Both the position numbers and the translations under genes were made by a program. Of a DNA stretch of 64,000 bases, positions 22,049 through 56,684 are shown one piece after another. Within the stretch, counting starts at the first letter, position 1, and each line of letters starts with the position of its first letter. Under the pieces are notes generated by a model. The model made no database searches and was not told where the DNA came from. It saw only the letters and a list, made by a program, of their open reading frames with translations. Where the stretch lies: IMG/VR virus record IMGVR_UViG_3300050491_000011. One strand, written 5' to 3'. This DNA is from a virus (taxonomy: Duplodnaviria > Caudoviricetes).

Positions 22049-22082
22049 GTATAGCGGGGGTGGAAACACCCCCGTTCTATGC
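22049..22082 (+). terminator. hairpin plus CTATG
   Basis: CGGGGGTG-GAAA-CACCCCCG-TTCTATG. Confidence 0.65.
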
Positions 22083-28737: not shown

Positions 28738-28746
28738 ACACATTAC
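28738..28746 (+). promoter_or_regulatory. putative early promoter motif ACACATTAC
   Basis: One of six intergenic A(C/T)ACATTAC copies; resembles the phiKZ early TATTAC element. Confidence 0.55.
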
Positions 28747-32699: not shown

Positions 32700-34130
32700 T
32701 TACTTGGCGTGGTCGTAGGTATTGCCCTGGTTGTTGCCAGCAGCATTCGCACGATAGCGCTCAGGACGAACCACTTCAGGTTCATCATTCTTGGTATCGC
32801 TACCACCAGCGCCACCTTTGATCTTGCTGGCCGACAGGTCGCAATAGCGCATGTTGGCTTTGAGCATCATCAGGAAGTCAGGGACGGCTTTGGTCCAGCC
32901 CTGAGACATGCAGCGGCAACCGCCGAGGATACCGTTGACCCACTGGCGCAGCTCAGGATCGATCTTCGCACCGGCCATGGATTCAGCCATCTTCAGACGG
33001 CTCAACAGAGTGTTGCAGGTCTTGACGACCGCATCAGCGCTCTTGGTCCATGCCGATACATCTTTCTCGATGACCTTCATGATGTCGAGGGCTTTCAGAG
33101 CCAGCGTGCAACCGCTCAGCATTTCAGCGTGCTTCAGCACCTTACCGGTGTGAGCAGCCTTTTCCTTGATGACAGCGCGATGCAACTCAACCTTGGCGCC
33201 GTTGAGAGGCCACTTGCTATCTTCGCCCGGAGTCAGCTTGATGCTGCTGGTTTCGGAGATCTTGATGTCCTTCAGCTTGGACATGTCGTTCTTCATCGAA
33301 CGGGTCAGCTCAGCTGCCGCAAGGTTCAGGAACTCCATGATCGGGCCAACATCGTTCATGTTGCTTGGCGGCTTGATGTCGATCAGATCTTCGAACGCGC
33401 CATGCCAGGCCGAGGTGAAGTTCTTGAACAGACCCATGTTGGTCTGAACGATCGAAGCAGGTGGCTTAACCTGACCAGAGCCGTTGGAGCAGTACGCGCC
33501 AATGCTTGCACCGAGGTTGATGGTGCCTTCTTCGGTTTCGCCTTTGTTCTTGTTGATCTTCGCCAGTACGCCTTCGCCGTACTTGCCGATCGACTTGCTG
33601 TTGTTGAACAGGCGATGCCAGAACTTGGCAACCATGTCCATCAAGCTCTTGAACGCTTCAGCTACCCAGGCGAGGATACGGCCGATAACGCCCTTCTTCT
33701 TTTCTTCAGCTTCAGTCGAGTAGTCCGCACGGCTAGCGCAGGATTCGAAAGAAGGAACCACGACGCCGACTGGGATACCCAGACCGGAGACCTTCAGGAC
33801 AGCTTCCACCGACAGGGTCATCAGTGCAGCACCTTCTTCGGTGATGCCGCTGTCGCCGTAAGTTTCGATGGTCTGATCAACGATCGACTCGATGGAGCCT
33901 GCCGCAGCTTCAGCTTTATCGATGGAGGCGTTTTGCCCACTGATGTCTTCAGCGATCGCATTGATCTCGCCGACTTCGGCCATGATGTCTTGCGACAGCT
34001 GTTCGAGGTCATCGCCTTCGACCGGTGGTGCTGGTGGTTCCTCGAAAGGAAGGTTGGCGAGGTCCGGCGCAGCTGGAAGCTCGGACGATTCAACGCCATA
34101 GTTGGCAAGTTGCTGCAAGATAGATCGCAT
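32700..34130 (-). CDS. internal head protein paralog 3
   Basis: Start MRSILQQLANYGVES after AAGGA SD; VVPSFES..DYSTEAEEKKKGVIGRIL.W. Confidence 0.7.
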   Translation of the reverse strand: MRSILQQLANYGVESSELPAAPDLANLPFEEPPAPPVEGDDLEQLSQDIMAEVGEINAIAEDISGQNASIDKAEAAAGSIESIVDQTIETYGDSGITEEGAALMTLSVEAVLKVSGLGIPVGVVVPSFESCASRADYSTEAEEKKKGVIGRILAWVAEAFKSLMDMVAKFWHRLFNNSKSIGKYGEGVLAKINKNKGETEEGTINLGASIGAYCSNGSGQVKPPASIVQTNMGLFKNFTSAWHGAFEDLIDIKPPSNMNDVGPIMEFLNLAAAELTRSMKNDMSKLKDIKISETSSIKLTPGEDSKWPLNGAKVELHRAVIKEKAAHTGKVLKHAEMLSGCTLALKALDIMKVIEKDVSAWTKSADAVVKTCNTLLSRLKMAESMAGAKIDPELRQWVNGILGGCRCMSQGWTKAVPDFLMMLKANMRYCDLSASKIKGGAGGSDTKNDEPEVVRPERYRANAAGNNQGNTYDHAK

Positions 34131-39340: not shown

Positions 39341-39369
39341 CATAAGCCCGGCTTCGGCCGGGCTCTATG
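39341..39369 (+). terminator. CATAAG-hairpin-CTATG element
   Basis: GCCCGGC-TTCG-GCCGGGC. Confidence 0.7.
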
Positions 39370-39389
39370 CCGTCAACTTATTTACAAGC

Positions 39390-39398
39390 ATACATTAC
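39390..39398 (+). promoter_or_regulatory. putative early promoter motif ATACATTAC
   Basis: Upstream of amrZ-like gene. Confidence 0.55.
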
Positions 39399-39439
39399 CG
39401 AATTGTCACTTAACCATTAATCTAGATCGGAGTTACAGT

Positions 39440-39832
39440 ATGAAACCATTGAAACAAGCAACCTACTCTTCGCGTTCGGCTGATAAGTTCGTAGTTCGTC
39501 TTCCAGACGGCATGCGCGAAACTATCGCTGAGGTTGCAAGGGGTCACCACCGCAGCATGAACTCGGAAATCATTGCACGACTCCAGAAGTCGTTGATGGA
39601 CGAAGGCATCGTACCTGTGGAAGAGGGTGAGTTGGAAGCATTGCCGCCTGAAGGTTGGATGCCGGGTACTGGTCAATTTGTTTATAAGATCGCTGGTGGT
39701 AAGAAGATCTACGGAACCATCAAGTCTATTTATATTAACGAGATGGGTGAGATGACAGCTAAGGTCACTAACGACCTGCTGGGTAACTTCACCGAATCGT
39801 TGAAGAAGCTACGTCCAGTCATCATGAAGTAA
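39440..39832 (+). CDS. amrZ: AmrZ/AlgZ-like Arc ribbon-helix-helix regulator with unrelated C-terminal domain
   Basis: [46 protein letters not shown] closely matches the Pseudomonas AmrZ N-domain. Confidence 0.85.
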
Positions 39833-39885: not shown

Positions 39886-40197
39886 ATGAGTCTTAAAGTC
39901 CGCGATTTCTTCACAACGAGTTGGATGTACCCGATCCCTGGCGTCAGCATCTGTTTCAAGGAACCCGAAGACCAGGTCGGTGAAGGTGAGTTGATTCCTA
40001 CCCACAAGGTTCATGTTTCTGTCAAGACGGCGGGAATGGCGGTCGACCTGGTAGGTAACGTTTACGTGGATTGGTCTGAAGAGCAATTCGCTCAGCGTGA
40101 CGACACTGCGTTCAAGGCTGTCGTTAAGCAGGTCATCACCAGCAAACTGGTTCCTTACGTTCAACTCACCGCTGATCCAGTCGTGGTGAAGATCTAA
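39886..40197 (+). CDS. hypothetical protein
   Basis: ATG ORF, 103 aa. Confidence 0.65.
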   Translation: MSLKVRDFFTTSWMYPIPGVSICFKEPEDQVGEGELIPTHKVHVSVKTAGMAVDLVGNVYVDWSEEQFAQRDDTAFKAVVKQVITSKLVPYVQLTADPVVVKI

Positions 40198-40207
40198 CAG
40201 CTGTAAA

Positions 40208-40237
40208 CATGACGCCCCACTTCGGTGGGGCTTTGTG
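40208..40237 (+). terminator. CATGAC-hairpin-TTTGTG element
   Basis: GCCCCAC-TTCG-GTGGGGC. Confidence 0.65.
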
Positions 40238-40729: not shown

Positions 40730-42382
40730 ATGTCTTTGAATGAAGTAGATCGTATCCAACACAACCTCTATCAAACACTGATGGAATCCGGTTACCTTAA
40801 AGGCGACCGTACTGGCGTGGGCACTCTCATGCTGCCTGGCCTTGTAATGGACTACGACATCAGCGACAAGAAGATCCCGCTGCCGTCGACCAAAGAAGTC
40901 TTCAACAAGTCGTGGGGCTGGGAGAACCTGATGTTCATCTCGGGTTCCAGCAACCTGAAGCTTCTGAAAGACAACAACGTCTCAATCTGGGACAACTGGT
41001 TCATTCCGGGCACTGCCGTCTACGACGAACCGAAGCGTGTTGTGTATTCGCTCGATGAGCGTATTCAGGTGGCTGTTGATGCCGGTCATCGCGACATCAT
41101 CATCCAACACATCCTCGAGTACAAGAAGTTCAACGGCAGCATCGGCAGTTACGCGGTTGTTGTGCAGGATGCCGATGGCAATCTGGTCGAATACTTCAAC
41201 CGCCCTAAAGCGTATCTCGATGCACTGTGGACCTTCCTCGGTAATCTCGGTATTCCTGAGTACAACGAGAACGGTGGTGGTAAGCCTGTCGGTATCCAGA
41301 CTCGACTGAAGCGTGTTGCGAAGAACATGACCCTCTGCTGGCACGAGATCAACAAGATCGTCTTCAACTTCGGTGATGTAGTCGCCCTAGGTGATAAGCC
41401 GTACAAGGTCGTCGTCTTCCACAAAGGTAAGTTTGTTGACGTCGAGATCAGTTCGACTAAAGTCACCGCTATCAACAAGATCATGGACAACTTCGATATT
41501 CCGAAGTACCCACTTCTGGAAGCTGATATCGGTCAAGGCAGCTACGGCGTGCAATGGCGCCGTTGGCAGGATACTCAGATCGTCAGCAGCGATCAGATCG
41601 ACGAGTACGTCGCGCAAGGTTACGAGATCGCCGGTAACCTGACCTCTGATAGTGCGTGGGGTCGTGGGATGCCAGGACCTGTCAAGATGTATCACGTCAT
41701 GCACCGCGAGATCGACCAGTTGCAGAACTGCATCGACATGCTGCGCAAGAACCCTGACGATCGCCGTATGATCGTTAACGCATGGAACCCAGGTCGTACA
41801 TGGCAAGCTGCTTTACCTCCATGCCATCTGTACTTCCAGTTCATCAGCTATCCGAAGAAAGCTGGCCAGATCCTCGATGACCTCGAGAAAGCTGGCATGC
41901 TGCAAAGTCTACGCCAAGCAATCAGCGAAGACTACGGCACTCACGTAATCGAGACTGTTCAGTCCTTCGAGAAGAAGTACGAAGAAGATGAAGAGTTCTA
42001 CGGTTATGTGAAGCGTTTCTGCGAACACGCTGTAGTTGGCGTTAATCCACGCCTTATCTCGACGCTGATGGTAATGCGCAGCAACGACTACGCTTTGGGT
42101 ATGCCGTTCAACGTAGCGCAGTATGCGGCCTTGACGCACATGGTTGCACACGTCACCGGCCATGACACTGACCGTCTGATCATTGTAGGTGGTGATTGCC
42201 ACCTGTACGTGAATCAGCTGGAAGGTATCACCAAGCAGTTGGCTCGTGAGTCCAGCGAAGATAGTGATCCTCGGTTCATTATCAAACGCAAGATTGCCGA
42301 GATTGATGACTTCACTTTCGAGGACTTCAAGATCGAGGGCTACAAACCTCAGCCAAACATCCCAATGCCTGTTGCGGTGTAA
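40730..42382 (+). CDS. thyA: thymidylate synthase with two large insertions
   Basis: DRTGVGT, YGVQWR, DRRMIVNAWNP, LPPCH, RSNDYALGMPFN, GDCHLYVNQ. Confidence 0.95.
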   Translation: MSLNEVDRIQHNLYQTLMESGYLKGDRTGVGTLMLPGLVMDYDISDKKIPLPSTKEVFNKSWGWENLMFISGSSNLKLLKDNNVSIWDNWFIPGTAVYDEPKRVVYSLDERIQVAVDAGHRDIIIQHILEYKKFNGSIGSYAVVVQDADGNLVEYFNRPKAYLDALWTFLGNLGIPEYNENGGGKPVGIQTRLKRVAKNMTLCWHEINKIVFNFGDVVALGDKPYKVVVFHKGKFVDVEISSTKVTAINKIMDNFDIPKYPLLEADIGQGSYGVQWRRWQDTQIVSSDQIDEYVAQGYEIAGNLTSDSAWGRGMPGPVKMYHVMHREIDQLQNCIDMLRKNPDDRRMIVNAWNPGRTWQAALPPCHLYFQFISYPKKAGQILDDLEKAGMLQSLRQAISEDYGTHVIETVQSFEKKYEEDEEFYGYVKRFCEHAVVGVNPRLISTLMVMRSNDYALGMPFNVAQYAALTHMVAHVTGHDTDRLIIVGGDCHLYVNQLEGITKQLARESSEDSDPRFIIKRKIAEIDDFTFEDFKIEGYKPQPNIPMPVAV

Positions 42383-56009: not shown

Positions 56010-56684
56010 ATGTCCGTAGATATCAGTACCTATCTGATCGCTACACCGCTTCCAGTATCTGAAACTAATCCAGTCGCCTTAGAGCTGCTTGGATCTCTGG
56101 CATTGATTCAATGTCCTGAGGTTGTTTCTATGCTCGAGGACGGATCTGTTCAATTCACCGCACCTACTAAAGGTGCGTCTAGTAAGAGTACTCACCGTAC
56201 TCGAACTGAATGGAAGGAACCAGAGTACTGGGCGTTGTCTAGCGCAGCTAAACACTGGAGCCGGCAGACGATGACTGTTACTAAAGTCAACTCTGCTCAG
56301 AAGGTGGTGGTTGCACAGATTCATGTCAAGGATGCTACAACGCCTCCTTTGAAAGTGTTCTGGAACAAAGGTAAGTTGACGATGGGTTTCCGCGGTAGTT
56401 TCGCTGATCCTACAATCGTTAACTATACGCTTCACACTGACGTACCCTTGGGCGTTCCGTTCAAGATCAGTATCGGTGTGACAGCCAGCGGTTCAGTGTC
56501 TGTCAACGCGTCATGTCAAGGTGTTCCTTCTCTGAAGAACGCGTTGAAGTTGAGCAGCACTTGGTTTGACCGGGTCTTGCAGTTCCATGGTGGCGTCTAC
56601 AACCAAGTCGACTACACCGACCTTACCTCTGACGAGGATGGTTCGATCTGCATTATCAGTGAGTTGTCTACAACTCACGAATGA
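56010..56684 (+). CDS. polysaccharide lyase family 7 (alginate lyase-like)
   Basis: RTEWKE, QIH and FHGGVYNQ correspond to the PL7 RxELR, QIH and YxKxGxYxQ motifs. Confidence 0.8.
   Translation: MSVDISTYLIATPLPVSETNPVALELLGSLALIQCPEVVSMLEDGSVQFTAPTKGASSKSTHRTRTEWKEPEYWALSSAAKHWSRQTMTVTKVNSAQKVVVAQIHVKDATTPPLKVFWNKGKLTMGFRGSFADPTIVNYTLHTDVPLGVPFKISIGVTASGSVSVNASCQGVPSLKNALKLSSTWFDRVLQFHGGVYNQVDYTDLTSDEDGSICIISELSTTHE

Follow-up and report, generated by a model that had tools for sequence, protein, structure and literature searches.

The locus examined here raises the question of whose promoters a phage-encoded copy of a Pseudomonas regulator is directed at, those of the host or those of the phage itself, and of what the second half of the protein contributes. 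The gene lies in a stretch of 64,000 nucleotides, here called the window, in which positions are counted from the first letter. The window is part of a 188-kb IMG/VR virus record, estimated to be 75% complete, so that the gene is carried by a virus and not by the chromosome of a pseudomonad. An identical regulator protein is also encoded on a contig of 251 kb. The relatives of a 979-aa protein of the window are confined to phiKZ-like jumbo phages, and none of them exceeds 35% identity. We infer that the phage is an uncultured phiKZ-like jumbo phage, and its relatives suggest a Pseudomonas host.

The gene and its regulatory elements

The features of the gene and its surroundings are as follows.

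39344–39373, + strand: terminator of the upstream gene, a GC hairpin with a tail of the phiKZ motif
39368–39403, + strand: promoter-like motif of 36 nt, scoring 33.3 bits
39429–39432, + strand: Shine-Dalgarno GGAG, 7 nt 5' of the ATG, read directly from the sequence
39440–39832, + strand: coding sequence of the phage AmrZ-like regulator, 130 aa plus stop, with an ATG start
39440–39607, + strand: N-terminal arm and ribbon-helix-helix (RHH) for predicted DNA binding and dimerisation, residues 1–56, by AmrZ 3QOQ and PF03869
39608–39649, + strand: acidic, proline-containing linker, residues 57–70, with pLDDT below 55 (AlphaFold2)
39650–39829, + strand: predicted SH3/Tudor-like small beta-barrel, residues 71–130, with pLDDT of 84–93
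39886–40197, + strand: ORF of 103 aa 3' of the regulator, poorly conserved, with no Pfam match

The reading frame of 130 aa that an earlier note on this DNA had placed at 39440–39832 of the + strand is exact. Upstream of it, the preceding gene ends in the hairpin AAGCCCGGC-TTCG-GCCGGGCT. The tail behind it, CTATGCCGT, agrees with the terminator motif ...GGBYTTATKYYGT reported for phiKZ (PMC10914365). The same hairpin and tail are found 5' of the gene in the related loci L005, L008, L014, L034, L045 and L055, and the complete module of terminator and promoter precedes the gene in the members other than L046 of the syntenic clade described below.

Similar terminators recur in this genome. The conserved tail [C/T]T[T/C/G]TATGCCG[C/T] follows intergenic hairpins at 22078, 23492 and 39366 of the window, and further hairpin-tail sites lie outside it at -10788, 68276, 83341 and 131473 (window numbering). 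In the relatives, CATA pairs with TATG at the base of the terminator hairpin. Moreover, the 11-mer GGCTTTATGCC has four copies in the genome and fits the phiKZ terminator form of a stem-loop plus TTAT.

The promoter-like motif is composed of an A/T-rich part, TTTACAAG and, at 39390–39398, ATACATTAC. A position-weight scan of the 188-kb genome recovered 25 copies on the + strand versus a single weak one on the − strand. All copies are intergenic, 35–70 nt 5' of start codons, and take the general form of an A/T-rich stretch, TTACAG and A[C/T]ACATTAC. The cores in the window are located at 28738, 37114, 37438, 39390, 46455, 50377, 53032 and 63989, and the other 17 lie elsewhere. With this strand bias, the early-type motif that the earlier note had seen upstream of the gene is a real element. 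The early-promoter consensus of phiKZ-like phages has been given as WTTTYAAACCTACATTATY for EL and TATATTAC for phiKZ (PMC7058600), and the motif at 39368–39403 resembles this early consensus of the virion RNA polymerase, that of EL in particular. The resemblance suggests that the gene is expressed early.

Some hairpins of another kind were also observed around translation starts. In L006 (3975–4000) and L007 (2260–2285) the Shine-Dalgarno of the AmrZ-like gene is placed in the loop of a GTCC-G[A/T]GGA-GGAC hairpin, and a GACC-G[T/A]GGA-GGTC hairpin stands 3' of several early-type promoters, at about 50420, 101972 and 123226 in window numbering. The regulator gene at 39440–39832 has no Shine-Dalgarno hairpin.

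The regulator and the 103-aa ORF behind it probably share one transcript, because no terminator lies between them and the next hairpin is at 40214–40231. A homologue of this ORF was found in the closest relative L005 only, with 42% identity. No match to the locus was obtained when 50,697 phage records were searched by megablast. Further downstream, the window encodes an unusually long protein of the thymidylate synthase family (550 aa, 40730–42382, + strand), whose residues 12–375 cover merely positions 5–155 of PF00303, which implies a large insertion. A long thymidylate synthase is likewise present 1–3 kb downstream of the regulator in L005, L008, L014, L045, L046 and L055.

The N-terminal half is of the AmrZ type

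The earlier note had likened the first 55 or so residues to AmrZ, and this likeness was borne out. In a phmmer search of the PDB, residues 1–58 matched P. aeruginosa AmrZ (3QOQ) with an E-value of 6.5e-24 and 47 of 58 residues identical (81%), in an alignment that contains a single gap of two residues; this identity is far above chance. Residues 11–58 also matched the Pfam family Arc (PF03869) with an E-value of 1.5e-22 and 79.6 bits, compared with a cut-off of 20.4. In the same PDB search, P22 Arc reached an E-value of just 0.05 and Mnt 0.33, so the likeness is specific to AmrZ and goes beyond the level of the family. AmrZ-type proteins of 107–109 aa from Pseudomonas genomes are 79–84% identical to the phage protein over residues 1–58. 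NCBIfam holds no AmrZ-specific model, and the search there returned only sub-threshold matches to TprA and DDP1.

The extended N-terminus that is specific to AmrZ (residues 1–16, MRPLKQA..YSSR) is present and aligns from residue 1. This arm is nearly invariant across the phage family and the host proteins, and according to Pryor et al. the arm of AmrZ has no similarity to other proteins (PMC3325190). In AmrZ, K18, V20 and R22 are the base-reading residues, and R14, K18, V20, R22, R28, H39, R40 and N43 read the DNA or hold the fold (PMC3325190). All of them are kept in the phage protein, where R14, K18, V20 and R22 correspond to R12, K16, V18 and R20, and R28, H39, R40 and N43 to R26, H37, R38 and N41. 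Moreover, the base-contacting and positioning residues R12, K16, V18, R20, R26 and N41 are invariant among the 55 family members. Since the reading residues are shared, the protein is expected to have the same GGC half-site specificity as host AmrZ. One exchange was counted against the explanation that we favour below: E51, a dimer-dimer contact residue of AmrZ (PMC3325190), is Q49 here, while close relatives have E.

The C-terminal half is a predicted small barrel

The resemblance to host AmrZ extends to about residue 58, and the tetramerisation domain of AmrZ (67–108) is not found in the phage protein. The RHH is followed here by the linker of residues 57–70, variable in both length and sequence within the family, and then by the C-terminal domain. 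An AlphaFold2 model based on the alignment of 55 family members has four to five strands within residues 80–126 (pLDDT 84–93), in agreement with the earlier note, which had described a beta-rich C-terminus unlike the C-domain of AmrZ. The domain carries the signature W73-x-P75-x2-G78-x2-V81 ... I94 ... P126, of which W73, P75, G78, V81 and I94 are conserved in at least 90% of the family.

The best fold match of the model is the Tudor domain of ERCC6L2 (6hq9_B), with a TM score of 0.80 by target and a Foldseek E-value of 1.6e-3; VIA-align gives it a Z of 8.6 and an rmsd of 2.2 over 58 residues. As a group, the best matches are barrels of the Tudor, KOW and SH3 types, with scores that are generic for small barrels and imply no function. 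Searches of viral and ESM Atlas libraries by features and by shape returned generic small-barrel matches or none. Residues 71–130 of the predicted model thus likely belong to the SH3/Tudor/KOW fold class, which is an assignment to a class and not to a specific family or ligand.

We also looked for relatives of the C-domain outside this protein family. Pfam, queried with one member and with 43 members, yielded no C-domain family, and neither the single-sequence nor the profile search of the PDB yielded a relative of the domain. When the C-domain alone was searched by phmmer against 1.8 billion representatives, one real relative was obtained, which is itself fused to Arc; three long matches, to SprB/Ig-repeat or lectin proteins, were discarded as probably spurious. 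A profile built from 43 C-domains retrieved 39 proteins, and all of them contain PF03869 except a fragment of 57 aa on a contig of 402 bp. At the sensitivity of these sequence searches, then, a separate source of the C-terminus, which the earlier note had called foreign, is not identifiable, and the domain is known only together with this RHH.

Distribution and age of the family

In the PHROG collection the protein matched phrog_38161, "Arc-like transcriptional regulator", with an E-value of 4.2e-26 over residues 8–111. In total, 961 homologues were found at E ≤ 1e-3, and relatives are encoded on 144 viral stretches of IMG/VR. Full-length homologues of 121–176 aa occur on metagenomic contigs of 243–277 kb. 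Pseudomonas phages make up 63 of the 102 phage records with relatives, and these are the best-matching, AmrZ-like ones. First, gp184 of phage PaBG is 62% identical over residues 9–82, a region that extends into the barrel, with low identity beyond residue 82. Second, the Samunaviruses SM1, PaMx31 and FBPa45 (93 kb) align over residues 5–130 at about 35% identity, and the C-domain of the SM1 protein taken alone is 31% identical (E 0.001). Third, the Noxifer-type proteins, of which that of Noxifer has 146 aa, align with the family profile over their full length. Other phages have the same RHH with a host-like helical tail or with what appears by eye to be a coiled coil.

A seemingly third architecture is found in still larger phages: on two contigs of 312–314 kb (L082 and L083), a protein of 220 aa has an AmrZ-like RHH that is separated by a long helical region from a barrel-like C-terminus with the pattern GMPVYV...G.V....

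The two halves of the barrel-type proteins have been conserved very differently, with a mean pairwise identity of 83% for the N-domain versus 32% (median 26%) for the C-domain. The 50-residue RHH is in fact nearly invariant and carries no phylogenetic signal. At identical residues, third-codon identity to the other lineages, phage or host, is 0.32–0.55, and that to L005 is 0.85, which means that synonymous sites are saturated except against this nearest relative. Saturation of these sites, together with the contrast between the two domains, indicates that a DNA-reading surface of the host type has been held by long purifying selection.

A syntenic clade consists of L005, L008, L014, L034, L045, L046 and L055, in which the gene directly follows that of a 346-aa protein and stands about 1–3 kb before the long thymidylate synthase; the 346-aa neighbour is merely 28–40% identical between clade members. 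Because the synteny is kept, third codon positions are saturated and the C-domain is never found apart from the RHH, the fusion is, on this comparative evidence, an old and vertically inherited phage family. The same three observations speak against the suggestion in the earlier note that the domain was captured, if a recent event is meant. Capture may be historically true, though not as an event of this phage. GC3 was tried as a sign of recent capture from the host and proved uninformative, with 0.57–0.66 in host amrZ versus 0.57 in the phage, and third-codon identity contradicts such a capture.

A different association with amrZ was observed on L013–L039, which are IMG/VR contigs of about 12–22 kb, with one of 50 kb. 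Many of them end about 325 bp after a host-type amrZ that encodes 107–109 aa, and they look like provirus calls that include the chromosomal amrZ. Their boundaries hint that amrZ is flanked by an integration hotspot, or else that the boundary prediction is an artefact there.

Probable function and alternative explanations

We consider it probable that the protein is an early, host-directed mimic of AmrZ that acts mainly as a repressor. Its N-terminal 56 residues would form a ribbon-helix-helix dimer of the AmrZ type, which soon after infection would occupy the AmrZ operators of the host and mainly repress them. The expected targets are amrZ and the genes for motility, exopolysaccharide and c-di-GMP, with CRISPR-Cas and cell division as further targets in some hosts. 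In place of the tetramerisation domain of AmrZ there is the predicted phage-specific SH3/Tudor-like barrel; we infer that the barrel probably provides the higher-order assembly or the partner contact needed for repression, and it would make the output differ from that of AmrZ.

Published work on homologues bears directly on this proposal. Borges et al., cited here from the preprint version, described 14 phages and plasmids of Pseudomonas that encode AmrZ homologues, in which the DNA-contacting residues are perfectly conserved, and five of the six phage homologues that they tested complemented a delta-amrZ strain (bioRxiv 10.1101/673095). The homologues of PaBG, phi3 and JBD68 also lowered the levels of the Csy complex (type I-F CRISPR-Cas) (bioRxiv 10.1101/673095). 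The present gene fits the same description, a Pseudomonas mobile element with all DNA contacts conserved, given the host suggested by its relatives.

The second case is Gp53 of the P. aeruginosa phage PhiPA1019 (94 kb), an early RHH protein of 126 aa that is closest to AmrZ (PMC13650114). It binds and represses the promoters of fleQ, pslA, amrZ and ftsZ, binds in vitro as a purified protein, lowers motility and biofilm and blocks division, and yet Gp53 and AmrZ are not functionally interchangeable (PMC13650114). Its critical residues R15, R21, M35 and N36 (PMC13650114) correspond to R20, R26, M40 and N41 of the present protein, and their numbering fits the protein of Samunavirus SM1 (L067) exactly. 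From its 94-kb genome, its length of 126 aa and this residue numbering, Gp53 would seem to represent the RHH-plus-barrel family in the Samunaviruses.

A reading surface frozen in the host type is expected if host operators are the targets, since a repressor and an operator within the phage could co-evolve. Taken with the results for the homologues of Borges et al. and for Gp53, this makes the early host-directed mimic the best explanation. Binding, repression, early expression and complementation of delta-amrZ were all reported in the papers on the homologues, and by analogy with them the same may be expected of this protein, which most likely acts on the AmrZ regulon of the host. The earlier note had offered either a rewired or a dominant-negative regulator, and the latter is not favoured by the homologues.

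Two features of this phage group weigh on the other side. A phage of the phiKZ type relies on its own polymerases to transcribe its genes and quickly turns off its host, which makes it hard to see what would be gained by retuning host transcription. Such phages moreover protect their DNA from CRISPR-Cas systems that target DNA, and the CRISPR rationale of the PaBG homologue may therefore not be the selective reason here.

It is possible, as a tentative extension, that the barrel goes beyond a substitute for oligomerisation and serves as a new effector module through which a partner from the host or the phage is docked, for example RNA polymerase. The Tudor-like domains of CarD and Mfd dock RNA polymerase. 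If this were true, occupancy of AmrZ operators would give outputs that the host regulator never gives, and the barrel would be a conserved host-takeover device of jumbo phages. Examples of such outputs would be growth arrest and repression of ftsZ, which have been reported for Gp53 and not for AmrZ (PMC13650114).

A regulator of the phage's own genes, that is, a temporal switch or autorepressor like P22 Arc and Mnt whose likeness to AmrZ reflects ancestry, seems unlikely to us. Arc-family proteins in phages classically control phage promoters, the gene is present in one copy per genome, and it stands directly behind a phage promoter motif. Moreover, GGC-N5-GCC with an A/T-rich spacer occurs just upstream, at 39361–39371, and one perfect match to the amrZ1 core GGCAAAACGCC is present at 33927–33937. 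However, the upstream pattern belongs to the tail of the phiKZ-type terminator, and its GCC is GCT or GCA in the relatives; the candidate autoregulatory operator GGCTCTATGCC was thus rejected as a by-product of the terminator tail. Similarly, the amrZ1 core lies within a coding region, and the degenerate pattern was seen once where 0.82 occurrences are expected. An internal pair would have no need of reading residues identical to those of the host across genomes whose proteins are 28–40% identical, and the published homologues act on host promoters. As to the amrZ1 core itself, this 11-bp operator core of P. aeruginosa is on the − strand inside an ORF, at chance level; the closest relative retains both half-sites, GGC and GCC, with another spacer.

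We hold it equally improbable that the protein is a dominant-negative poison, which would form mixed dimers with host AmrZ that lack one tetramerisation domain, so that activation and repression both collapse. In its favour, the RHH is the dimerisation unit and is 81–84% identical to that of the host. According to Xu et al. 2016, the C-domain of AmrZ reportedly mediates tetramerisation and is required for function, and this domain is absent here. Nevertheless, complementation of delta-amrZ by five of six phage homologues means that these work without host AmrZ, and purified Gp53 binds its target promoters in vitro and represses them. Among these, the PaBG homologue, of the same build as the present protein, both complemented the mutant and repressed csy, and Gp53 represses on its own; the dominant-negative part of the earlier note is thereby disfavoured. 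Mixed dimers with host AmrZ may arise as a side effect of the host-directed mimic.

Finally, RHH proteins are common antitoxins, some of the PHROG matches are labelled "partition protein", a weak match to FitA-like RHH was obtained (E 0.0015) and a small ORF comes next, probably on the same transcript, but a generic antitoxin or partition-type protein paired with the 103-aa ORF is very hard to credit, as that ORF belongs to no toxin family and, of all the relatives, only the closest has it next to the gene, the FitA score is under its Pfam cut-off, and the AmrZ-specific arm and reading residues are retained.

The earlier note had further joined the regulator with a PL7 lyase in one module. The alginate lyase is real (56010–56684, + strand, 224 aa, PF08787 with E 1.3e-42), but the module is not upheld, since 16 kb separate the lyase from the regulator, the two belong to different transcription units, and of five complete related jumbo genomes with the regulator only that of the nearest relative has the lyase as well.

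Comparison with known systems

Host AmrZ (AlgZ; 3QOQ) and the phage protein have in common the N-terminal arm, the RHH fold and the residues K18, V20, R22 and R14. The main difference is the helical C-terminal tetramerisation domain of AmrZ (67–108), which is replaced here by the predicted SH3/Tudor-like barrel. In addition, the "PT" of the P. aeruginosa arm is missing, and D23 stands in place of E25 of P. aeruginosa, as in proteins of the P. putida and P. fluorescens type. P22 Arc and Mnt belong to the same Pfam family PF03869 and are distant by sequence. In Mnt, too, the RHH dimer is extended by a C-terminal domain for tetramerisation, but the targets of Arc and Mnt are phage promoters and not host promoters.

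The AmrZ homologues of PaBG, phi3 and JBD68 are, like the present one, encoded by phages, with the RHH of AmrZ and all of its DNA contacts intact. The two-domain build is shared by PaBG gp184, whereas the phi3 and JBD68 types have a different C-terminus of about 81–86 aa, by eye a coiled coil. The present copy belongs to an uncultured phiKZ-like phage of soil or compost to which no cultured phage is closely related; the best matches of its structural proteins are at most 35% identical. Gp53 differs in coming from a 94-kb phage that is not a jumbo phage and in having a more diverged RHH (57% core identity to this protein), and its effect on ftsZ and filamentation may or may not apply here. The term "C-terminal" has no occurrence in the preprint of Borges et al. 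(bioRxiv 10.1101/673095), where the barrel is not discussed, and occurs only in the reference list of the Gp53 paper (PMC13650114), where the C-terminal domain is not analysed.

It is already known that phage copies of AmrZ retune genes for host defence, motility and biofilm in Pseudomonas, and the present gene belongs to this published kind and opens no new category. What is added is that RHH-plus-barrel proteins form a family of long standing, widely distributed among the giant phiKZ-like phages of environmental pseudomonads, in which the DNA-reading half has been frozen in the image of the host while the remainder of the protein drifted, and in which the barrel is seen in this fusion only. 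The family thus offers natural variants with which the contribution of the C-terminal domain to regulation of the AmrZ type can be probed.
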